From a virus, in UHGV virus genome UHGV-0232909: 12,461 nucleotides of DNA; one strand, 5' to 3'. The notes under the pieces were generated by a model that was not told where the DNA came from, ran no database searches, and saw only the letters and a program-made list of their open reading frames with translations. Positions within the stretch are counted from its first letter, which is position 1. Each line of letters opens with the position of its first letter. This document shows, piece after piece, positions 2,068 through 12,461 of the stretch. Made by a program: the position numbers and the translations under genes.

Positions 2068-2241
2068 TCATGCTGCTTTGCGACGACGAAGCTTACCCTG
2101 CTGCTCTTTACCAGAGACAGTAGCGTGAGTGAACGCATTATGAGCAGCCTTCATCAGAACTTCAACAGCAGCACCCATACCTGCGAATGCTTTCATTGTG
2201 TCGAACTTAACCTGTGGCTTGGTTGCTTTTTGATCTTCCAT
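2068..2241 (-). CDS. small basic-tailed protein (57 aa), third gene of the minus-strand accessory cassette; absent from the ORF track
   Basis: Hand translation of the minus strand: MEDQKATKPQVKFDTMKAFAGMGAAVEVLMKAAHNAFTHATVSGKEQQGKLRRRKAA. A strong SD (AGGAG) sits 7 nt upstream of the ATG (ATG = complement of 2239-2241). Stop at 2068-2070, immediately followed by the bidirectional terminator. Confidence 0.45.
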   Translation of the reverse strand: MEDQKATKPQVKFDTMKAFAGMGAAVEVLMKAAHNAFTHATVSGKEQQGKLRRRKAA

Positions 2242-2280
2242 AGAAAACTCCTGAAGTTATACCGAAACAATTCCTGTTGT

Positions 2281-2700
2281 TTACTCATCATCAATAGATG
2301 ATACGCAATATTTATTTTTAAATTTAAGGTTCTTTGGCGTAACTTCATCAGAGATATCAAAACCGTCCAGAATTCTATTGAATGTAGCTTCTGGCATATC
2401 ATCATGAACAGAAATCTCACCCGATCGCTGCTTTCTAACCATGTTATCCACTCGCCAAATTATAGCTTCAGCGTAAACAACATAACTTGGATGCTTGATA
2501 AAGCGATGATCACCAGAATTCAAGATGCAAGACGGATCGTGGGGGACACCATCCTTGATACTAGAAATATTAACAACTAAAACACAATAACAATCGTTAA
2601 CGGGGTAATAAACAGGATCATTACAAATCACATGAAGATGATTGCATGGCCCAGTTGGGGCAAGCACAGTTCCTTTCCTGTATGGCTGATAATCCGTCAT
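2281..2700 (-). CDS. unknown 139-aa protein translationally coupled to the Panacea-domain gene (candidate toxin/effector)
   Basis: ATGA overlap with the upstream gene (stop/start share 2697-2700). No recognised family. Cys/His-rich N-terminal half (CNHLHVICNDP...DCYC...DPSC...DHRFIKHPS) and acidic C-terminus (SSIDDE). AT-rich codon usage unlike the flanking phage genes. Confidence 0.65.
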   Translation of the reverse strand: MTDYQPYRKGTVLAPTGPCNHLHVICNDPVYYPVNDCYCVLVVNISSIKDGVPHDPSCILNSGDHRFIKHPSYVVYAEAIIWRVDNMVRKQRSGEISVHDDMPEATFNRILDGFDISDEVTPKNLKFKNKYCVSSIDDE

Positions 2701-3269
2701 GATAATTGCAAAGAAAATTCCTTAAGTTTCTGAGATTCTTCCATTTTGCCAATTATGCGATTAGCCTCATCCTCGCTTTTACCCTCACTGATCAGCATTT
2801 CTTTCAGGTCTATAGGCTTACGAGAATTGCCAGGATCGTGCCACTCTGGACAAACGCTTTCTAAATGCGTCATATTTGCGAGATCAAATCGGTTCATATG
2901 CCCATACCGAGAATAGATTTCATCTAAAATCCGGATATCTGCACGACTCAATTCATCAAAGACCTCGTCTGCATCCATTTCCCTCGGATCTGAACGCAAC
3001 GATACATTATGCCCGTTCGTCTCTATCAAGTTGTACCAGTAGTCACCAATGCCTTCAGCCTTACCGCGAATCAAGTTCAGCGTATTCGACATGACTGGTC
3101 CAAATTTCATAGAGTAAAGGCTATCTTCGCCGATCATCCTGCCATGCTTCAAAATCGACTGGCGGTTAGACAGATAGAGCAACTTCATCAATTTCAGATA
3201 TGCCATGCGCCCACCTCGCTTAAGAAGTAGGTATGCAGCCATTTGAGCTACTTTTTCTTCGCAAAACAT
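2697..3269 (-). CDS. Panacea-domain protein (SocA/PanA-like; DUF4065), putative antitoxin
   Basis: 190-aa ORF. The segment AAYLLLKRGG-RMAYLKLMKLLYLSN...KFGPV matches the Panacea-domain core pattern (K-L-x-K-L-L-Y ... G-P-V). GAGG lies upstream of the ATG (complement of 3267-3269). First gene of a three-gene minus-strand operon. Confidence 0.75.
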   Translation of the reverse strand: MFCEEKVAQMAAYLLLKRGGRMAYLKLMKLLYLSNRQSILKHGRMIGEDSLYSMKFGPVMSNTLNLIRGKAEGIGDYWYNLIETNGHNVSLRSDPREMDADEVFDELSRADIRILDEIYSRYGHMNRFDLANMTHLESVCPEWHDPGNSRKPIDLKEMLISEGKSEDEANRIIGKMEESQKLKEFSLQLS

Positions 3270-3660
3270 ATAAGAAACCTCAAAGATAGTGAACTTTATA
3301 ATTATTCTCGATACTTCATGGGTTGCTTCATCACCAACACGAGCTTCTTATGGTGTGCCCACTTGGGCCTAAGCAACCAGTTACCTCGTTTGTCAAGTTT
3401 ATAGCTGGCTTTAACCATGGTCAATTGAAGTGATGAGCAAATGATGCTTTCTAAGAATAACAGGTTCCCAATAGGCTCCCACAAAGTGTATAACTAGTTG
3501 TTTTTCAAAAACGGTACATCCTATCGAGCATAGGAGCAATGCTAAACCGAGAATTCCAGTAAACACCAGTTTTTTCAGGCATCACGCTGGTTTGATTAAT
3601 TTTTTGTGTTTCATGATTATCGTGCATTTTTGAACATTTCAGGCTATTTTTCTCGCATTA

Positions 3661-3696
3661 GGTTCCCGCACAGGTTCCCACGTTTTATGGGAACCC
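3661..3696. promoter_or_regulatory. cluster of GGTTCCC(A) repeats immediately upstream of int (candidate operator or integrase arm-type sites)
   Basis: GGTTCCC at 3661-3667 and 3673-3679 (direct) and GGGAACC at 3689-3695 (inverted), giving the palindrome GGTTCCCA-cgtttta-TGGGAACC. A second pair, CAGGTTCCCA / AGGCTCCCA, lies at 3461-3480. The int RBS (GAGG, 3705-3708) and ATG (3716) follow directly. Confidence 0.3.
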
Positions 3697-3715
3697 GAAA
3701 TAACGAGGTCGTGTA

Positions 3716-4813
3716 ATGGCGTACTATAACATAGAGAAACGACTAAAATCCGATGGCACACCACGCTATCGCTGTAATGTGATTATCAAAGAAAAAGGTG
3801 TTATCACTTACAGGGAAAGCAAAACATTCCCTAAACATGCTCATGCCAAAACATGGGGCACACAGAAAGTGATGGAATTAGATCTATATGGCATTCCATC
3901 ATCAAATGCAGTTGACGGACTTACAGTCCGTGACTTACTACACAAATATTTAAATGACCCAAATGCCGGAGGTAAAGCAGGCCGTACTAAAAGATATGTG
4001 CTGGAACTGCTTATGGATAGTGACATCTCCGCGATCAAACTATCTGAACTGACAGAAAATGACGTAATTGAACATTGCAGGCTAAGAAACAACGCTGGCG
4101 CAGGTCCAGCAACAGTCAGCCACGATGTTAGTTATCTTGGCAGTGTTCTGGATGCGGCCAAACCTGTATACGGAATTAATTACACATCAAACCCGGCGAA
4201 AAGTGCTCGTCCATATCTACTTAAACTTGGTTTGATTGGTAAATCAAACCGTCGTAATCGTAGACCAGCATCTGATGAACTGGACATGCTCATTGAAGGC
4301 CTTCAACAACGATCTACTCATAAATGCTCAAAAATTCCGTTCGTTGATATCCTCAAATTTTCTGTGTGGTCCTGTATGCGAATCGGAGAAGTATGCCGGT
4401 TACGATGGGAAGATCTCGACCAGGAACAAAAATCTATACTCGTAAGAGACAGGAAAGATCCACGCAAAAAGGAAGGCAACCACATGAAAGTAGCCTTGCT
4501 TGGGGAAGCCTGGGATATCGTCCAACGACAGCCCAAAAAATCGGAATTCATTTTTCCATATAACAGCACTTCTATTACTGCGGGATTTCAGAGGGTAAGA
4601 AGCAAATTAGGTATTAAGGATCTGCGATACCATGATTTGCGTAGAGAAGGGGCAAGTCGCTTATTTGAGGCTGGTTTTAGTATTGAGGAAGTAGCCCAGG
4701 TTACAGGGCATCGTTCATTAAACGTGCTATGGCAGGTATATACCGAACTGTATCCGAAATCTTTACATAATCGTTTTGAAGAGCTCCAAAGGAGCAGAAA
4801 TAAGACCCCTTGA
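3716..4813 (+). CDS. int: tyrosine-type site-specific integrase
   Basis: 365-aa ORF with RBS GAGG 7 nt upstream. Carries the conserved tyrosine-recombinase boxes: MRIGEVCRLRWEDLD (Arg box), HDLRREGASRL (H-x-x-R) and a C-terminal GHRSLNVLWQVYTELY with the candidate catalytic Tyr. Confidence 0.9.
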   Translation: MAYYNIEKRLKSDGTPRYRCNVIIKEKGVITYRESKTFPKHAHAKTWGTQKVMELDLYGIPSSNAVDGLTVRDLLHKYLNDPNAGGKAGRTKRYVLELLMDSDISAIKLSELTENDVIEHCRLRNNAGAGPATVSHDVSYLGSVLDAAKPVYGINYTSNPAKSARPYLLKLGLIGKSNRRNRRPASDELDMLIEGLQQRSTHKCSKIPFVDILKFSVWSCMRIGEVCRLRWEDLDQEQKSILVRDRKDPRKKEGNHMKVALLGEAWDIVQRQPKKSEFIFPYNSTSITAGFQRVRSKLGIKDLRYHDLRREGASRLFEAGFSIEEVAQVTGHRSLNVLWQVYTELYPKSLHNRFEELQRSRNKTP

Positions 4814-4861
4814 CACTGTTTATCCATACAGTTAAAAATAATACTGTATACAAACACAGTA
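4810..4861 (+). promoter_or_regulatory. SOS-regulated promoter: TTGACA -35 hexamer plus two LexA boxes (CTGT-N8-ACAG)
   Basis: TTGACA at 4810-4815 overlaps the int stop codon. LexA-like box 1 is caCTGTttatccatACAGtt (4814-4833). Box 2 is taCTGTatacaaacACAGta (4842-4861), a near-consensus SOS box lying between the promoter and the RBS AGAGGG (4863-4868) of the DinI-like gene. Confidence 0.6.
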
Positions 4862-4874
4862 TAGAGGGACTTTT

Positions 4875-5123
4875 ATGCGTATTGAAATCTGCATAGCCAA
4901 AGAAAAAATGACTAAAATGCCAACCGGTGCTGTGGATGCGTTAAAGGAAGAATTAACCCGACGCATCAGTAAACGTTATGACGATGTAGAGGTGATCGTA
5001 AAAGCCACCAGCAACGATGGCCTTTCTGTTACACGCACCGCAGATAAGGATTCTGCAAAAACTTTTGTTCAGGAGACTCTGAAAGATACCTGGGAATCTG
5101 CTGACGAGTGGTTTGTTCACTAA
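4875..5123 (+). CDS. dinI: DinI-family DNA-damage-inducible protein (phage-borne paralogue)
   Basis: 82-aa protein [31 protein letters not shown]...[16 protein letters not shown] aligns along its whole length with E. coli DinI from memory (MRIEVTIAK...QETWESADDWFV). Preceded by LexA boxes and a good RBS. Confidence 0.85.
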
Positions 5124-5190
5124 TTAACACGTAAAATCGGTAACGGCTGGAAATCATTCAATAATCGCACTATCGAAAGTTCGCCAGCCA

Positions 5191-5226
5191 GCCGCAGCAC
5201 GTTCTTGCATACGACGTGGCTGCGGC
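5191..5226. other. extended imperfect stem-loop between the DinI-like gene and the invertase remnant
   Basis: GCCGCAGC (5191-5198) pairs with GCTGCGGC (5219-5226); the inner CACGT/ACGTG also pair, giving a stem of about 12 bp with one bulge and an 11-nt loop. No clear U-tract on either strand, so it is not a canonical intrinsic terminator. Confidence 0.35.
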
Positions 5227-5266: not shown

Positions 5267-5635
5267 TTATTTCGTTTGAATGCCAGTAACAGGAAATCGT
5301 TTATATAGGGTTGATAGCCCAACGTTATAGATACGTGCAACATAACGCCGTGATTTCCCTGCCGCTATGAGCGCTCCCATCTGTTGCCACTGCTCGTCGC
5401 TAAACTTCGGTCTACGCCCACCAATCCGGCCTTTGGATCTGGCAATAGCCAAACCAGCTAAAGTTCGCTCGCTATTCAAATCAGATTCATACTGCGCAGC
5501 AGAAAGAATATTACGGAAATTATAGCGACCACTTGCTGTTTTCAGGTCTACGCCATCTGTAATACTCCGAAAATTAACACCTTTTTCGTGCAGATTTTGA
5601 AACATCAATAGCGCATGCAGCACATTTCTCCCTAA
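5267..5635 (-). pseudogene. pin: N-terminally truncated serine DNA invertase (Pin/Gin/Hin family) remnant
   Basis: The translation ...PLGRN-MLHALLMFQNLHEKGVNFRSITDGVDL...SKGRIGGRRPKFSDEQWQQ...YNVGLSTLYK matches the C-terminal two thirds of Pin/Gin (LGRSMKHLISLVGELRERGINFRSLTDSIDT...NKGRIGGRPPKL...ALSTLYKK). The roughly 70 N-terminal residues, including the catalytic Ser region, are absent; similarity stops near 5636 and no ATG-initiated full-length frame exists. Confidence 0.8.
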
Positions 5636-5641
5636 GGGGAA

Positions 5642-6001
5642 TTGTCTGCTGCTGGGGTTAGCGGTGGCGCTGCATCTGCTTCAGGATACATCACCATTCC
5701 GATGATTATTAATGGAGCAAGGCGGGTCTTATACATCCAATGGGGGGGATTTACAGGAACTACAGATAGCTCCGGCTCCAACGGAATATATGAAACCTCA
5801 AATATCACCGTCACCTGGACAGTTGCTTTCCCCAATGCGGTTTTCCAGGTGATAACAGGCGGTTCATCTGATGTTAGTGGTGTCGGGCAGCAAGAGATGG
5901 CATGGAGTCTGGGCAAAACAAAAACTAATGGGATTTTTGGTTTTCAATGCCGGACACCAAACGCATCGATGACTGGCTCATATCTTGTAATTGGTTATTA
6001 A
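5642..6001 (+). CDS. tail-fibre C-terminal (variable-domain) cassette lacking an N-terminal anchor domain; silent alternative segment
   Basis: Gly/Ser/Thr-rich beta-type sequence typical of phage tail-fibre distal domains. The frame opens at 5636 exactly where invertase homology ends on the other strand; only a TTG start (5642) is available. Directly followed by a tfa gene, the usual Sv'-U' arrangement of Mu G / P1 C / e14 invertible segments. Confidence 0.55.
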   Translation: MSAAGVSGGAASASGYITIPMIINGARRVLYIQWGGFTGTTDSSGSNGIYETSNITVTWTVAFPNAVFQVITGGSSDVSGVGQQEMAWSLGKTKTNGIFGFQCRTPNASMTGSYLVIGY

Positions 6002-6014
6002 ACGAGGACATCAC

Positions 6015-6491
6015 ATGAGATTTTCAGTTAGCACCCAATCATTCTACGATGATAATTACGAGGAAAACGCAGTAGTCAACGATTTACCCTCAGATGTTCA
6101 GGCGATAGATGATGAGCAATATGCTAGTTTTTTTAATGCAATAAATAGTGACCGGGTGGTTTATCTGGTTGCTGACGAATTCACGATTTCTCAACCCCGC
6201 CCCGATAAATACTATTCATGGGATATGACAAGTAAGACCTGGGCTATGACTGATGCTGCCGTAGCACAAAAGTCGGCAGACCTGATAGCTGATGCTGAGC
6301 TACGGAGAACAACGTCGTTATCAGCAGCAGGTATCGCAATATCCCCGCTGCAAGATGCCGTTGATCTGGGTATGGCTACAGATGTAGAAACGAGGCGACT
6401 GACAGAATGGAAAAAATATCGGGTATTGCTGATGCGTATTGATACATCAAAAGCCCCCGATATCGAATGGCCATCAGTACCGGTCAGTTGA
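6015..6491 (+). CDS. tfa: tail fibre assembly protein (Tfa/gpU-like chaperone)
   Basis: C-terminal region [50 protein letters not shown] matches the conserved Tfa C-terminus (APLQDAADL...[22 protein letters not shown]). ATG at 6015 with GAGGA 6 nt upstream; the ORF-track start at 5991 is a TTG. Confidence 0.8.
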   Translation: [158 protein letters not shown]

Positions 6492-6648
6492 CAAATGGAT
6501 TAGTAGACGATGATAAGAAGGTAACGTAGCGTTCGTCATCATCGTCTATTTCTTCAATGCCTGGATAAACAGTTTCATCTTGCGGACTGTAGAAAACCGC
6601 GCTGATCTCCTTTTTCGTGGAGTCTTTAAAAAGAACATAGATTTTCAT
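6484..6648 (-). CDS. small acidic ORF (54 aa) translationally coupled to the tail-fibre gene; absent from the ORF track
   Basis: Hand translation: [54 protein letters not shown]. Its ATG overlaps the tail-fibre stop (ATGA at 6646-6650). Its 3' end overlaps the convergent tfa gene by 8 nt (6484-6491). It occupies the position where a cognate tfa would be expected. Confidence 0.4.
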   Translation of the reverse strand: MKIYVLFKDSTKKEISAVFYSPQDETVYPGIEEIDDDDERYVTFLSSSTNPFVN

Positions 6649-7679
6649 CAGAATGAGTACCCCGTTGAATAAATTGTTGATGCCGTTGGTGTGCCGCCAA
6701 ACAAAATCTGGTAATAAATTTTCTGCGGCTCAGCAATCATCAAGTTTGAGAAAACAGATGAAATACCAGAGTTATTATTCCCCTGGGTTCGTAAGCCCAA
6801 CGGGTAGGATTTTGACGATACGGCAAATGAGTTATTTGTTGCTGGCGCTGTAGAGTTAATTAACCCCCAGCCTTCCATTGTTTTGGCGTTTTTAGGAATG
6901 GCTGAAGATACAGAAAGCTCAGTCAGTGTAGAAACCGTGTTTGTTACAGTGACAAGAGGTTGCTCTGGCGTGTTAATTTGCCTTCCCATCATCTCACCGA
7001 CAGTGAACTGGCTTGATGCTACTCTCCACACGCTAACCAATGCAGATGCCGTATAGCCTGCTGGTAGATTTGCACCGCCATAAATTTCTGGCGCGGTGGT
7101 CGTCGTTGCATTCACTGCAAGGAGTGCTGTTGCCCCGTTCGTCGGATTTAAAATTGCGTACAGGGCAATAAATCCAGCTGTCGGAACAGTCCCTGTGTCC
7201 ATACCTCCCGCGCCGGTTGTGCCGAGATTAATCGTCTTATTGAATGCACTTAGCCGGTATTGCTGCCCGGTGCTCGTCTCTACGATCAATTCATCGGCTG
7301 TAAAGGTTGCTGTCGATGATGCGGCGGCGATGCTCATACGCGCATTTCTGGATTGACCAACAACACCCGAAAACGATTCTCGCAATTGAAGGTTTTCGAG
7401 AGCCGTTTTCACCGTGCCATCCGATTTGATATCGCCAAACGGATTCTTGCGGCTTAACAGCAGCGCACGAAGCGCGGTAAGCAGCTGGTCGTGCCGCGCC
7501 TTCTCCAGACTGGCACCGGATGCCTCAACAACGCTACAAAGTTCTTCCTGCAACATGTCAAAGTAGTCATCATCCAGATCGGTGGCAGGGGTGCCGGTCT
7601 GGGGGTTACCACGGGTAAAACCGTTCTTACCCGCGCCGAACTTATCCTTCTGCGCGGTTTTCGTGTCTATACGATGCAT
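6648..7679 (-). CDS. tail fibre protein (complete, 343 aa)
   Basis: Conserved phage tail-fibre N-terminus [47 protein letters not shown]... followed by a Gly/Thr/Ala/Ser-rich distal domain. Last gene of the baseplate operon, in the position of Mu S / P2 H. Confidence 0.85.
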
Positions 7680-7682
7680 GGA

Positions 7683-8267
7683 TTACTCCGGATATTTAAA
7701 AATTACGTAGGTATGCGACGGGCAGAGTTTGTTAAGCACACACTCGACAACGGTGTCGCCCCAGATACGCAGTGCGGAATCACAGGGATCGCCACATGTC
7801 ATCCAGGTGGTGTTGGTGGTGGTTGGCATGTTGACCTGCCAGTAATACCGCCATTCCGGCGCATTCACCGCGTCAGTACAGGCCGATGAGCAGGTGAACG
7901 TGCTTTTGTCGTATCGCGTGATGGTGGCATCTGGTCTGCCCAGGGCAGCAAGCTGTGCAAGATAAAAATCCTCGTTGATGCCGCCCGCCAGGTTAACCTT
8001 CGCATCCAGCCGTTGCTGACGCTGGCGAAGGGTCTGCGTTCCCGCCGGAATACATTCATCCGGCAGACCGCACAGACGCTCCCAGCGGTTTATCAGTTCA
8101 GTGGTGGTGCGCGGATCCAGCTCCCGCATCAGGGCATCCGCACGCTGATGAACACGGGTTAATGACGGTGCCGCACCGGCAATCGCCGGATCGCTGGCTG
8201 ACCACGCCGGACCGGGCGGCAACAGTGCCGATAACAGGCGGATGTAATCATCGTTTGTCACGTCCAT
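7683..8267 (-). CDS. Mu gp48-like baseplate/tail protein (DUF2313, YmfQ-like)
   Basis: 194-aa protein in the position and size class of Mu gp48 / e14 YmfQ, directly upstream of the tail-fibre gene. Cys-rich C-terminal third. Overlaps the upstream gene by 10 nt. Confidence 0.8.
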
Positions 8268-9316
8268 GAAATCGTCCCCAGTACCGCCAGTTCGTTTTTC
8301 GCAATGGAGATATTGTCCACCGGTGCAAGCAACTGATGGCTGTATTCCCCGTTCGCACCGGAAATCGCCTCACTGATACGCGATACCTTCAGTTCTCCCT
8401 GCGGATAACCATCACGCAGCAGGAACGAACGCAACTCCGCGGTAATGGCAGCCCGTATTTCCGGTGTGTCCGGCGTCACGCGGATATGAAAATCCACCGT
8501 ATGTGCCACCGGCCTGAATACATACAAATCAGAGCCTGCCACCGGGGCCAGTGGCCCGATATGTTGTCTTGCTGCCGTTTCCGTTGATTCTTCCGGAATG
8601 GGATTAATCAGGTCACTGCTGGCAATCATCACACCGACAGTTCCCGTTCCCATCCAGTGACGGTATGTCCATGCGCGGGTAATGCCGGGCACTTCTTTAG
8701 CCCAGACGACATAGTCCCCGTCAGCCCCGCCCTGCGGCGTCCAGTAATACCGCTCAATGACGCGGGCGCGCCACGTTTCCAGATCTTCTGTATCAAATCC
8801 GCCTGTCAGGGTGTCAGTCACACCGGAAGACGGCAGACCATTCACCGGCGTGACCAGGATTAATGCCGTACCATCGTCAGCGTTACCGACCGCGCCTGTA
8901 GTTGAGCAAGTGATCGGCACACGCAGGACACCACCGGAGCTGGTTGCATCGGCAGTTGCCGTGTACTGAACCAGGTCATCGCGCTGAATCACGCTCCCGG
9001 CAGTCACCTTCAGGCCATCGCTGACACCTTCCCAGCGCATATACCCGCTGGCAGCCGTGGCCCCCTTGCGCGGACACCGTTTCATCGCAGCATGTCGCGC
9101 CAGCCAGGACTCATCGCACAGGTCAGGCAGCATATTCATTGCCAGATAATCGATGTACCCGTAAACCGTATGCAGCGCCGCCGCATACACCTTTGCCCGC
9201 ACGTCTTCATCCATGCGCCGGAGCGTGTCGCTGACGTCCAGCCTGGCGAATAAATCGTTACGGAGCATACTGATATTTTCTGCCAGCGTCGGGCGCTGAA
9301 ATTCACTGTCCGCCAT
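8258..9316 (-). CDS. baseplate J-like protein (Mu gp47 / P2 gpJ family)
   Basis: 352-aa protein in the conserved order gp46-gp47-gp48. ATG at the complement of 9314-9316. Overlaps both neighbours, indicating translational coupling. Confidence 0.85.
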
Positions 9317-9731
9317 GCGTTATCGCACTCCACAGATCATCAAAAGAAATCATTACCGGTCCGTCACGACGCCAGAGAGTGATACTGTTACCCAGTTCAT
9401 TAATCCCGGTGCGGTGGATATCCAGATCAATACGGGACACCACGCCGTCATCAATCATCCATTGCAGGCATTCGCGGATATACCCCCTTACCGTCAGCAC
9501 CAGCTGATTGGTCAGTTTGCTGCGCTGAAGCAGCCACAGTCGGGAGCCGTAACGGTCATTCTGTACCGCAGGCCAGGTATCCCCCCACCATCCCATCGGG
9601 ACGTCGGCGTTGTCATCAGGCTCCGCCCGCCGCCAGGTAAACAGGGAAATCACCACGGCGCGGGTCAGCGGATCCAGCGGTGCGCTGGCGCAGGTGCGTT
9701 TACCGTTCACCGTCAGCCACAGTTCCATCAT
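9303..9731 (-). CDS. Mu gp46-like baseplate protein (GP46 / gpW-gp25 class)
   Basis: 142-aa protein between the gpV-like and J-like genes. Start ATGATGA overlaps the stop of the upstream gene. Confidence 0.8.
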   Translation of the reverse strand: MMELWLTVNGKRTCASAPLDPLTRAVVISLFTWRRAEPDDNADVPMGWWGDTWPAVQNDRYGSRLWLLQRSKLTNQLVLTVRGYIRECLQWMIDDGVVSRIDLDIHRTGINELGNSITLWRRDGPVMISFDDLWSAITHGGQ

Positions 9732-10276
9732 GCCTCCATCGCTTTATCAGGTTTGTCGGTGTTACTGCCCTGACCGTTCTCTCTGTGACGATGCCCGTTA
9801 TAGGCAAGCCGCATCGCTGACATGGTGGTGCCGCTGGAGTCGCACAGGTCTTTCACCTGTCCTGTCACTTCCAGGTCCATTTCAAAACGTGCTTTAGGTG
9901 AATTGCGAAACGTGATCGTTTTACCTGCACCGTCCACCACGATCCCCTCCCGGGTCAGCGTCACGGACTGCCCCTGATCGTCATAGACAGCCACCTCACC
10001 CGTCTGCAGCCCTTTCAGGCGGTAGCGCCGGTCCGACACCGTAACAACCACCGCATGAGAACGGTCGCCATCCGGAAACAACACCACCGCTTCCGCACCG
10101 CTGTTTGCCCTTGCGGTAAAACCGTAGGGTTCAAGATGTTCAACCCCGGCTTTGGGTTCACCGGCAATCAGGGACACATCCACGGTCTGACATTTCGTGG
10201 CGGCACTGATGCTTTTCACCACGGCCCGCCCAATCAGGCCGAGGAGTTGTCGCTGCATGGCTTCAATCGTCCTCAT
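9728..10276 (-). CDS. baseplate assembly protein V / spike (Mu gp45-like)
   Basis: 182-aa protein with the size and position of Mu gp45 / P2 gpV. TGATG overlap with the upstream gene at 10274-10278. Confidence 0.8.
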   Translation of the reverse strand: MRTIEAMQRQLLGLIGRAVVKSISAATKCQTVDVSLIAGEPKAGVEHLEPYGFTARANSGAEAVVLFPDGDRSHAVVVTVSDRRYRLKGLQTGEVAVYDDQGQSVTLTREGIVVDGAGKTITFRNSPKARFEMDLEVTGQVKDLCDSSGTTMSAMRLAYNGHRHRENGQGSNTDKPDKAMEA

Positions 10277-11355
10277 CAGAACGGGTCCTCCTGTACTCTG
10301 GCTTTTTTCTTTTTCCGCGCGCCGGGGGCTTCGGGTTCAGGCAGATAAGCATCAGGTGGGCCGACACGGATTTCCGTCAGGGTGCCGTTCTGGTCCTGAG
10401 TAAACGTGACTTCCGAAACAAGCAGTTCGGTATTGTCGAAACCACAGACCGGATCAAAGACAATCACCCGCTGGTTGGGCTGCCACAGCGTACCGTTACC
10501 CTGTCGCCAGCCCTGCACCACATAGGTGGTTTCATCCGTCCGCGCCGCCCGTTGTCGGGCTTCAAAGTCCGCACGGGCAATACAGCCTGCTCCCGTAGCC
10601 TGCCCTGTCTGCCTGATATACATCGGACGGTAACGGGCAATAAATGCGTCCTCTGTGCGGGCCCGCAGCGCGGTGGTGGTGGCCTCACCGAAATCATCGT
10701 CGTTTCCGGCACGCTGCCCCGCCACCTGGTAAACAGAAAATCGCTCCCGGATACTCTTCTCCGTATCGCAGGAAAGGATGTTTTCCCCGAGTACCAGCGC
10801 AGTATGTGCCCGCGTTGAGCCAATACCGCCAATCACCAGCCTGCCGTGCGGGTCGTCGTAAGCCAGCGCCTGCTGCTGACCGAGTATTTTGTTGATTACC
10901 TCAATCACCGTTTCACCGTGATCAGGCTGAACATCAGGAATAACACCCGACGGCGCACCGCTGTTCACCACCTCAATGCCGAAAGGCGCAGCAAGCGCCT
11001 GCGCAATCTGCACCAGCGAGCGTCCGTTAAACTGTGTCGGTTCGGCTGCACAGTCAATCAGGTCAGCCGTCAGACTACGTCCGGCAATACCGGTGCTGAC
11101 CGAACGGGCATCGTAACGAACGGGCGTCGCCTCCACCCAGCCGGTGATCACCAGCTCATCACCAATCAGCACCTCCACTTTTGAACCGTTTTTAATGCGC
11201 GGCTGAAGCGTGGTGATACCCTCATCTCCCGGCCACTGGCGAGTGATCTCCACACTGAAATCCCGCGCCAGCCGTTCAATACCGGCACCGATGCGCACCG
11301 ATGTCCAGCCATTCCACTCCCGGCCATTTACCCGTAGCGTGACGTTATCGTTCAT
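10276..11355 (-). CDS. baseplate hub protein (Mu gp44/P, phage late control gene D family)
   Basis: 359-aa protein in the position of Mu P / P2 gpD, upstream of the gpV-like gene. Basic C-terminal tail (ARKKKKARVQEDPF). 4-nt overlap with the upstream gene. Confidence 0.8.
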   Translation of the reverse strand: MNDNVTLRVNGREWNGWTSVRIGAGIERLARDFSVEITRQWPGDEGITTLQPRIKNGSKVEVLIGDELVITGWVEATPVRYDARSVSTGIAGRSLTADLIDCAAEPTQFNGRSLVQIAQALAAPFGIEVVNSGAPSGVIPDVQPDHGETVIEVINKILGQQQALAYDDPHGRLVIGGIGSTRAHTALVLGENILSCDTEKSIRERFSVYQVAGQRAGNDDDFGEATTTALRARTEDAFIARYRPMYIRQTGQATGAGCIARADFEARQRAARTDETTYVVQGWRQGNGTLWQPNQRVIVFDPVCGFDNTELLVSEVTFTQDQNGTLTEIRVGPPDAYLPEPEAPGARKKKKARVQEDPF

Positions 11356-12461
11356 TGCACTGGCACCTTCAGAGGGATCACCGGCACAAAGCCGGGATGC
11401 GTAATGGCATTACGCCGGATAATGTCCGCGTCACGCGCCGCGTTATCAAACCAGGTCGCCGCCAGCACCAGCGCGGGTAAAACCTCATCCGGCGTGCGCT
11501 GAATGATCCGTGCAGACTGTTCAAGGCGCGTGTTGATATCCGCATTCAGATCTGCTTTCACCCGGCGCAGCGCCAGAAACAGCGCATCACTGGTTGTACG
11601 GGACAACTCCTTATCAATTGCCGTATTCAGTGTGTCGCGAATGTCAGTCAGTTCTTCCCACGTCGGCAGGTCAACTGTGTTTTTCACCGCCGGTGCATTG
11701 TTCAGTGCCGGATGCGTGACGGAAGGCCAGCCAGTGCTCTGCGCAGGTGTTGTTGCCTGCCCCACTGCGGAATTCTGCATCACCGCGGAAGTTGTTGGCG
11801 CAGGCAATCGGGTGACGGCATACGCCGCTTCGCTGATTGCGGTCGTACGAAGGGTGCTGGCAACCACGTTACGCTGCTGCGTCGCCGTGGCGGTGGTTTT
11901 ACTGTCCGTTTTCCAGACGCCGCGCGGTTGCAGATCGCTGCCGAGGCTGACACCGGAAAGCGTTTTGATCATGGTGACCAGGTCGCTGGCGTTACCATAA
12001 AGGCGTTTCCCGGTACGCCACATTTTCTGCACCTGCTCAACGAAATTTTTGCCTGACGATGGCGGCGGCAGAAGTACCGAGATATCCCCCTGCAACAGCC
12101 TGGCGGCATCCGATACGGCAGAATCCACCACTTTCATCGCATCAGAAACATACCCCAGCATTATGCTGGCATTACCGATAACGTCGTTCTGCACGAAATC
12201 CGCCACACCATCGATACTGAAACCGCTGAAGCTGTCACTGATGCAGTCATCCAGTGCAGAACAGGATGACATCAGCGTCTGCGCCGTCGCCGCACCTGAT
12301 GTGGGGTAAGAGAGTTCTCCTGCTTCGACAAACTTCAGGTCAAAGCGGACAATACGCCCTTCACTTTTCGATGTGCTGACCCGAACTTCCCCGTCAACAC
12401 AGACTTTCAGCTCACCATATGTCGGGTGGACAAGCGTGCCGGGACCGGGTTTATTCAGCGC
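11352..12461 (-). CDS. Mu gp43/N-like DNA-circulation (tail-associated) protein, 5'-partial: N-terminus lies beyond the window
   Basis: The frame continues open upstream of the first ATG (12272) to the window edge (hand translation ...VRFDLKFVEAGELSYPTSGAATAQTLMSSCSALDD...). Ser/Thr/Ala-rich central region. Gene order gp43-gp44-gp45 as in Mu-like tail modules. Confidence 0.6.
   Translation of the reverse strand, partial: ALNKPGPGTLVHPTYGELKVCVDGEVRVSTSKSEGRIVRFDLKFVEAGELSYPTSGAATAQTLMSSCSALDDCISDSFSGFSIDGVADFVQNDVIGNASIMLGYVSDAMKVVDSAVSDAARLLQGDISVLLPPPSSGKNFVEQVQKMWRTGKRLYGNASDLVTMIKTLSGVSLGSDLQPRGVWKTDSKTTATATQQRNVVASTLRTTAISEAAYAVTRLPAPTTSAVMQNSAVGQATTPAQSTGWPSVTHPALNNAPAVKNTVDLPTWEELTDIRDTLNTAIDKELSRTTSDALFLALRRVKADLNADINTRLEQSARIIQRTPDEVLPALVLAATWFDNAARDADIIRRNAITHPGFVPVIPLKVPVQ

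Follow-up and report, generated by a model that had tools for sequence, protein, structure and literature searches.

The 237 bp or so at positions 3461–3697 of the viral genome UHGV-0232909 (12,461 nucleotides, hereafter the window) hold the phage attachment site (attP) of a lambdoid Escherichia coli phage whose target for integration is the 5' end of the host gene dusA. A motif with the consensus yAGGTTCCCa is present five times in this stretch, and just beyond it lies int (3716–4813, plus strand), which encodes a 365-amino-acid tyrosine integrase (Int) of the dusA-specific (DAI) family. The comparisons described below make it quite probable that the five copies are arm-type Int-binding sites of the kind found in phage lambda. 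The original prediction, which was made from the letters of the window, had noticed short repeats on both sides of an AT-rich interval upstream of int and offered two readings: arm-type sites of an integrase, in which case attP would lie upstream rather than downstream of int, or an operator that controls int.

Two of the five sites are on the int-distal arm and three are on the int-proximal arm. Site 1 (CAGGTTCCCA, 3461–3470, plus strand) has its heptamer centred at about −62 from the centre of the recombination core, and site 2 (TAGGCTCCCA, 3472–3481, plus strand, about −51), which carries the one-base variant GGCTCCC, is 11 bp from site 1. On the other arm, site 3 (TAGGTTCCCG, 3659–3668, about +136) and site 4 (CAGGTTCCCA again, 3671–3680, about +148, 12 bp from site 3) are also on the plus strand, and site 5 (CGGGTTCCCA on the minus strand, 3688–3697, about +165) is inverted and lies 7 nucleotides past site 4. 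Sites 4 and 5 form a perfect 8-bp inverted repeat with a 7-nucleotide spacer. So, the motif does occur at both of the predicted places, but the first cluster, which was thought to hold copies in both orientations, has two direct copies only, and the lone inverted copy is in the second. The sites on both arms differ in sequence from the core and are tens to more than 100 bp from it.

In the whole window there are four exact copies of the heptamer GGTTCCC (at 3463, 3661, and 3673 on the plus strand and at 3689 on the minus strand), where chance alone would give about 1.2, and all four are within the interval. If one mismatch to YAGGTTCCCA is allowed, there are five sites in the interval and one other in the window (at 5091). 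An unremarkable frequency of the motif elsewhere had been named as a sign against either reading, and this single relaxed match is all that lies elsewhere. An independent repeat search recovered the same family of repeats. When the region was shuffled with its dinucleotide content preserved, 10 of 5000 shuffles gave four exact copies of any 7-mer within 237 bp; however, two other 237-bp stretches of the real window also hold four copies of some 7-mer. The repeat statistics from the window alone are therefore suggestive rather than decisive, and it is the comparative data that carry the weight.

The core of attP is the perfect inverted repeat CCTAT-CGAGC-ATAGG at 3520–3534, which we identified by aligning four sequences: the window (attP), dusA of E. 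coli K-12 (attB), one int-side prophage junction, and one far-side junction (attL and attR). Between informative mismatches, the sole stretch common to all four is TCGAGCAT (3524–3531, or nucleotides 97–104 of E. coli dusA), and therefore strand exchange is located there. The prophage-derived records PhiR40_1, PhiR47_1, phiSTEC1575-Stx2k, and 1720a-02 end at 3524 or within four bases of it. Among the loci that we fetched, 72 of 78 int-side (partial) matches break at 3524, and at locus L002 dusA can be seen to adjoin int. Finally, the interval is matched in 742 of 5426 complete E. coli genomes, and the matches take two forms. One form covers 3524–3720 and is beside dusA and an integrase gene, and the other covers 3380–3630 and is beside a truncated fragment annotated as "tRNA-dihydrouridine synthase."

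Experimental data for a close relative agree with this placement. For 1720a-02, which is 95.8% identical to the window here, Int-dependent formation of attP was demonstrated by quantitative PCR and sequencing (Balasubramanian et al., 2019, PMC6328086). The primers used, CTTTGGATAGGTTCCCAATAGGC and GGGTTCCCATAAAACGTGGG, fall on sites 1–2 and sites 4–5 (PMC6328086), and the attP amplicon corresponds to 3461–3697 of the window. The 1720a-02 data and the prophage junctions together, along with the four-way alignment, put attP upstream of int and not downstream of it, as the arm-type reading had anticipated. The comparison with bacterial genomes that had been suggested, which was to look for a matching attB core at the 3' end of a tRNA or protein gene, for example, did turn up a core, in the 5' end of the protein gene dusA.

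We note one unusual locus. In the chromosome of E. coli GPEC1352 (NZ_CM142780, locus L004, 5921–6341), there is a complete attP-like junction that has phage DNA to its left and right. Its core reads TCAAGCAT in place of TCGAGCAT, and there are three matching places in the record. This may reflect a tandem arrangement of two dusA prophages.

Between the core and the int-proximal sites lies a phage-borne replacement dusA 5' end, which in the attP form is a 40-amino-acid open reading frame (3505–3627, minus strand). Reading the minus strand from 3627 down to the core, 86 of 104 nucleotides are identical to the first 104 nucleotides of native dusA, and the phage frame encodes MHDNHETQKINQTSVMPEKTGVYWNSRFSIAPMLD where the native gene encodes MHGNSEMQKINQTSAMPEKTDVHWSGRFSVAPMLD. 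The phage frame is in frame with dusA, so that after integration the stretch from 3627 to the core makes up codons 1–35 of the host gene; indeed, RefSeq annotates a full 345-amino-acid DusA in one lysogen as starting at the phage-derived ATG. Such a replacement 5' end has been described for the dusA-specific family (PMC4482086; PMC6328086). The interval of the original prediction (3461–3696) is thus more than a plain spacer, as it contains both the recombination core and 104 nucleotides of coding sequence. Also, it is only mildly AT-rich (35% GC between the clusters versus about 41% in the flanks).

Int has a tyrosine-recombinase catalytic domain with the catalytic residues and is 98% identical to Int of phage mEp460. 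Its homologues at 52–99% identity come from dozens of genera of gammaproteobacteria, and immediately upstream of most of them are dusA sequence and the conserved core. Int is clearly a member of the DAI clade, and the element clearly belongs to the dusA-specific integrase family, among whose members mEp460 was listed by Farrugia et al. (2015, PMC4482086).

Across these relatives, the layout of the repeats near int is constant and their sequence is specific to the lineage. We collected 80 genomic loci with Int homologues at 52–99% identity, and nearly all of the 78 that we examined have a direct pair of heptamers, 11–12 bp apart, immediately upstream of int, and often an inverted copy 5–9 nucleotides after the pair. 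(The inverted copy is found in most Enterobacterales lineages and in the relatives AS1, GP4, BcepIL02, and JBD90.) The heptamer is GGTTCCC in Escherichia, Kosakonia, Phytobacter, and Pluralibacter; GCACCCC in Izhakiella, Mixta, Xenorhabdus, Serratia, and Raoultella; GTACACC in several Enterobacterales (a Klebsiella sp., Xenorhabdus, Plesiomonas, and two metagenome-assembled genomes); GGACACC in Rosenbergiella and Proteus; GGATCCC in Gilliamella; GTATCCC in Zobellella and Oceanimonas; and GTGCCCC or CTGCCCC in Shewanella, Aeromonas, and other marine gammaproteobacteria.

We then examined the attPs of nine more distant relatives (Int identity of 34–68%), taken from phage genomes or from the joined ends of prophage-delimited records. 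Down to 34% Int identity, the heptamers of these relatives and the window are GGTTCCC, GCACCCC, GTACACC, GTACCCC, GTGCTCC, and TTGCTAC. Counting from the ATG of int, the sites in the window are at −253 and −242 on the far arm and at −55, −43, and −27 (inverted) on the near arm. The attPs of YeP2 (GCACCCC) and EKP1 (GTACACC) have their own heptamers at −253 and −242 and at −56, −44, and −29 (inverted). In the Marinobacter attP AS1 (GTGCTCC), the sites are at −279 and −268 and at −60 and −49, followed by two inverted copies. Even GP4, BcepIL02, and JBD90 (TTGCTAC), whose integrases are just 34–36% identical to the one studied here, have a far-arm tandem pair with a spacing of 11 bp and a near-arm direct pair with one or two inverted copies. 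Overall, in 9 of the 10 attPs the heptamer of the near arm recurs across the core as a tandem pair, 11 bp apart, and such a pair arises by chance in 0.0004–0.002 of shuffles per attP.

The edge of the shared DNA also falls at the repeats. The homology of mEp460 (L083) and of another locus (L042) to the window starts exactly at 3463, the outer edge of site 1, and beyond that point mEp460 has unrelated DNA. Members of the GGTTCCC lineage keep the heptamers, with that of site 3 invariant, while their linkers vary. An operator would not be expected across the core at a fixed distance, and a site for a host factor would not change among lineages that share host genera. Thus, as judged from these alignments, the repeats appear to be element-specific protein-binding sites that belong to attP.

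Some Int homologues are located away from dusA and still keep paired heptamers upstream of int. These are in Xenorhabdus, Serratia, Raoultella, Buttiauxella, Pantoea, and Klebsiella phage Kp4882-1 (loci L111–L113, L116–L122, L141, L143, L151, and L162, and L168 for Kp4882-1). Several of them retain the TTTTCGTGCAT block, which is the start of the replacement dusA 5' end in dusA elements. This suggests that the target was switched while the arm was retained. As for EKP1 (OM284015, our locus L167), it is named as an Elizabethkingia phage, but its int, its TCGAGCAT core in a dusA-like 5' end, and its PrtN and DinI are typical of Enterobacterales dusA prophages, and the N-terminus of its int and its proximal arm closely match a Klebsiella sp. 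locus (L098). The stated Flavobacteriia host looks doubtful.

If the repeats are bound by Int, then a candidate for the binding domain is its N-terminus. Residues 1–58 (encoded by 3716–3889) are confidently predicted to form a three-stranded sheet and a helix (beta-beta-beta-alpha), followed by a flexible linker. Known arm-binding domains have a beta-beta-beta-alpha topology, and we propose, from the predicted structure, that residues 1–58 are the arm-binding domain. The remainder of Int is closest to lambda Int. A Pfam search with residues 1–120 gave no match at E values up to 10, and the N-terminal domain had no significant fold match to the N-terminal domain of lambda Int. (We considered the Pfam family PF24624, Int_N, as the arm-binding domain and rejected it: in some homologues it covers residues 100–167, which is the core-binding domain.)

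We compared each domain of Int with the heptamers over 2346 pairs of homologues, which are phylogenetically related. When a shared heptamer was predicted from identity in Int residues 1–58, the area under the curve was 0.925, compared with 0.81 from the core-binding and 0.77 from the catalytic domain. When the identity of the catalytic domains was held at 70–80%, the identity of the N-terminal domains was 0.82 in pairs with the same heptamer versus 0.55 in other pairs. Conversely, with N-domain identity held fixed, pairs with the same heptamer were not higher in catalytic or core-binding identity. Rank partial correlations with heptamer similarity did not discriminate between the N-terminal domain and residues 70–355 (0.19 versus 0.17). 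In these sequence data, then, the identity of the heptamer tracks residues 1–58 of Int and not the catalytic domain, which is an association rather than a proof. Also, of the neighbouring genes, int alone stays with the sites in every context: tailed phages, double-jelly-roll (PM2-like) prophages of Vibrio, and chromosomal locations away from dusA. The arm-type reading of the original prediction has thus gained three kinds of support: each lineage has its own heptamer on both arms, the heptamer follows the N-terminal domain of Int, and the mosaic homology of mEp460 begins at the outermost site.

We propose that Int and attP work together as follows. The C-terminal (core-binding and catalytic) domains of Int would bind the CCTAT/ATAGG inverted repeat around TCGAGCAT, and the N-terminal domain (residues 1–58) would bind the heptamers, two in tandem about 50–60 bp away on one side and three about 135–165 bp away on the other side. 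Bending proteins would fold the arms back, and a single Int protomer would bridge arm and core. An integration host factor (IHF)-like site at 3491–3503 (minus strand; AAACAACTAGTTA, which differs from WATCAANNNNTTR by one mismatch) is located between the core and the distal arm sites and might supply a bend. A directionality factor of the PrtN/RdfN type would assist excision. On recombination with attB, the first 35 codons of native dusA would be exchanged for the phage copy, and int would be left at the end of the prophage, reading inward.

Some observations weigh against this explanation. The contrasts between domains and heptamers come from related sequences and so are not independent tests. 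One of the ten attPs, from Pseudoalteromonas phage C5a, does not have a clean tandem pair on the distal arm. In the window, IHF-like matches are indistinguishable from chance (15 matches versus 11 expected); as YeP2 and EKP1 have one-mismatch matches at the equivalent position (as read by eye), we keep the site at 3491–3503 for its conserved position, as a candidate only. The directionality factor also varies between lineages and hence is, formally, a candidate binder. Lastly, we found no binding data for any member of the family in the literature that we searched (most subscription journals were outside of its coverage).

The leading alternative is that the heptamers are bound by a PrtN/RdfN-type excisionase instead of by Int. 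The window encodes a PrtN-family protein (1712/1739–2020, plus strand; Pfam PF11112, E = 4e-23), and this protein (1739–2020) is likely to be an excisionase of the RdfN type, across attP from int. A PrtN-family gene is also beside attP and across from int in EKP1 and GP4, and the equivalent open reading frame of YeP2, which is annotated as hypothetical, is 76% identical to the EKP1 factor. Furthermore, directionality factors commonly bind tandem direct repeats, and the sequence of the factor does differ between heptamer lineages (52–55% identity between the window and EKP1 or YeP2). However, in lambda, P22, and HP1, the directionality factor has its sites in a single arm, between the arm sites and the core, while here the motif is on both arms. 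The comparison of factors argues weakly against this idea as well: those of EKP1 and YeP2 are 76% identical, yet the heptamers are GTACACC and GCACCCC. RdfN has been identified as the directionality factor of dusA-specific elements, and an attP-int mini-element of a related dusA island, without rdfN, was recovered as a stable integrant at dusA (PMC8409611); the factor is therefore not needed for attP to work. Given also how well Int residues 1–58 predict the heptamer, we consider binding by the excisionase to be improbable.

Another alternative, and one that we rate no higher, is that the int-proximal cluster (3659–3697) is mainly an operator for int and/or for the promoter of the replacement dusA 5' end (dusA'), and that the distal copies are incidental or are auxiliary operators for looping. 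Most of the 88-bp gap that separates int from dusA', where both promoters must lie, is taken up by the three proximal sites. The palindrome formed by sites 4 and 5 resembles the operators of dimeric repressors. Also, in Escherichia sp. MOD1-EC7003 (L086), whose Int is 99% identical, the equivalent position of the heptamer has been altered by T-to-C changes in both halves of the palindrome (3673–3695 in the window): site 4 is GGTCCCC and site 5 is GGGGACC, while site 3 is still GGTTCCC. The changes keep the two halves complementary, and they could be a compensatory-looking pair or the result of conversion between the two sites. On the other hand, no operator model predicts that the lineage's own heptamer would be present as a tandem direct pair across the core, about 190 bp away and at a conserved distance, in 9 of 10 attPs. 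Many lineages do not have the inverted copy. No regulator gene is consistently linked to the sites: int alone is constant across tailed phages, PM2-like prophages, and unrelated contexts, and the heptamer tracks the N-terminal domain of Int. So the sites are neither confined to the promoter region nor matched to a linked regulator. A pure operator is thus disfavoured, although the int-proximal cluster could have a secondary regulatory role, and regulation is compatible with arm-type sites if Int is itself the regulator.

It is very unlikely that sites 4 and 5 work by forming a hairpin in RNA or DNA, such as one in the int leader, instead of by binding protein. They are a perfect 8-bp inverted repeat with a 7-nucleotide loop, and the paired changes in MOD1-EC7003 preserve the pairing, but we reject an RNA hairpin because the predicted fold is no more stable than that of shuffled sequence (z = −0.48). 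Also, in several lineages the inverted copy is absent or differs at two central positions, and a hairpin would leave site 3 and the distal pair unexplained. Least of all could the repeats be the chance recurrence of a short G+C-rich word: although other stretches of the window reach four copies of some 7-mer, few shuffles do, and the recurrence of the layout with different words in dozens of lineages effectively refutes this explanation.

If the sites are arm-type sites for Int, they may still affect transcription. The gap between the ATG of int (3716) and the ATG of dusA' (3627) is divergent, and apart from sites 3–5 it contains a conserved block, AGGCTATTTTT (3641–3651, as read from the sequence comparison). 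In every lineage of Enterobacterales, regardless of its heptamer, the T-tract of this block (3645–3651) ends 10 nucleotides ahead of the first proximal heptamer. By its sequence, the block is a candidate −10 element, as TATTTT for int on the plus strand or as AAAAAT for dusA' on the minus strand. A scan of 3250–3800 for consensus promoters and terminators did not find a sigma-70-like promoter in the gap. In Xenorhabdus elements (L097, L100, L102, and L103), the conserved AGGCTATTTT block, equivalent to 3641–3651, occurs as two tandem copies 10 bp apart. This block is between the start codon of dusA' and the proximal arm sites and stays conserved regardless of the arm heptamer; it could be bound by a host factor or by the directionality factor, or it could be a promoter element.

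The int gene is on the same strand as the early-left genes, with attP in between, and therefore int in the prophage is cut off from that transcription. It presumably needs its own promoter in the 88-bp gap (3627–3716). Because sites 3–5 fill most of this gap, it is conceivable, though we would not bet on it, that Int bound at the proximal sites is also a transcription factor for the divergent promoters, which would autoregulate int and set the expression of the chimeric dusA.

The attP of phage lambda consists of the arm-type sites P1 and P2, the core, and the arm-type sites P'1–P'3, along with sites for IHF, Xis, and Fis. The attP described here is similar in its total length (about 240 bp), in having five arm-type repeats that are split two and three across the core, in the inverted core-type sites around a short overlap, in the spacing of arm sites by about one helical turn, in the lengths of the short arm (about 50–60 bp) and the long arm (about 135–165 bp), and in a candidate IHF-like site between the short-arm sites and the core. 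There are also clear differences. Here, int reads away from attP and starts 19 bp beyond the outermost arm site, while lambda int reads toward attP. The long arm here is mostly coding, as it holds the replacement dusA 5' end, and it carries the three-site cluster, one copy of which is inverted. The arm consensus has no relation to that of lambda, the N-terminal domain of Int lacks a Pfam match or a significant fold match to that of lambda Int, and the element targets a protein gene at its 5' end.

The element is also like the dusA-specific elements that have been described previously (PMC4482086; PMC6328086; PMC8409611). It has their integrase family and target in common, as well as the replacement dusA 5' end, a crossover about 100 nucleotides into dusA, and a PrtN/RdfN gene across attP from int. 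Those papers define a 7-bp core and a 21-bp att consensus (the latter from Farrugia et al., 2015, PMC4482086). By description only, there is also a likeness to the SXT/R391 elements, which insert at the 5' end of prfC and swap the 5' end and promoter of the host gene for their own copy (discussed in PMC8409611), but the integrase lineage and the target are different. Thus, the location, the target, the replacement 5' end, and the directionality factor were already published. In contrast, the texts on dusA elements that we searched (PMC4482086, PMC6328086, and PMC8409611) do not mention arm-type sites, the N-terminal domain, or lineage-specific heptamers, and our literature search for arm-type sites in the dusA family, with the coverage given above, found nothing. 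The papers searched seem not to have described arm-type sites, how far attP extends in full, or a diversification of heptamers that is matched by that of the N-terminal domains.

The rest of the window is consistent with a lambdoid E. coli phage. Positions 2200–5200 are 99.9% identical to Escherichia phage SKA5 and, over the shared parts, about 98% identical to mEp460. Early-region genes on the plus strand, encoding an Ea22-like protein and a 3'-5' exonuclease, extend up to 1702. The region of the PrtN-family gene contains AAGCAAA four times (1761–2057), including in the similar 13-mers AAGCAAACGCTTG (1845–1857) and AAGCAAAACGTTG (1899–1911). Between this gene and attP is a cassette of three open reading frames on the minus strand (2068–3269): a small one (2068–2241), one of 139 amino acids (2281–2700), and one of 190 amino acids with a Panacea/SocA antitoxin domain (2697–3269). 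In EKP1, YeP2, and GP4, the gene for the directionality factor adjoins attP or is one small gene away from it, and mEp460 has unrelated DNA at the position of the cassette. In other prophages of E. coli, the partner reading frame has a different length (387 bp in L003 and L004). The cassette looks like a toxin-antitoxin or defence moron that was inserted at the distal edge of attP.

On the other side, int is followed by dinI (4875–5123, plus strand) and then by tail-fibre genes. A 118-amino-acid open reading frame (5267–5623) has only the C-terminal part of a resolvase domain and an HTH_7 domain; its counterpart in SKA5 is annotated as a 564-bp DNA invertase. Beside it are a gene for tail-fibre assembly (5991–6491, plus strand) and, on the opposite strand, a 343-amino-acid open reading frame with no Pfam match (6648–7679). 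The annotation of SKA5 has tail-fibre genes on both strands in the region that matches 5991–7679. Together, 5267–5623 and 5991–7679 may be a truncated or decayed invertible tail-fibre segment. The GC content rises from about 40–45% to 55–63% in the tail and tail-fibre region (about 7000–12461), which marks a sharp boundary in the mosaic.

Prophages at dusA are common, as about one in seven complete E. coli genomes matched the interval. The family includes Stx-converting phages, and IncC resistance plasmids mobilize related islands of Vibrio that have dusA as their target. Until now, this family's attachment site has been described by the 21-bp core consensus only; the full attP as proposed here (about 237 bp with five arm sites) is the DNA to include in mini-elements, integration vectors, and excision assays. 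As one layout is combined with many heptamers, each with its own 58-residue N-terminal domain, the family offers a system for studying how arm-binding domains read DNA. If our explanation is correct, this natural series of matched pairs, in which a single scaffold bears at least six specificities, would make a recognition code of arm-binding domains readable, and it could yield orthogonal pairs of integrases and attPs. Finally, if the proximal sites do regulate int and the chimeric dusA, then the control of recombination would be tied to the expression of a host tRNA-modification gene.

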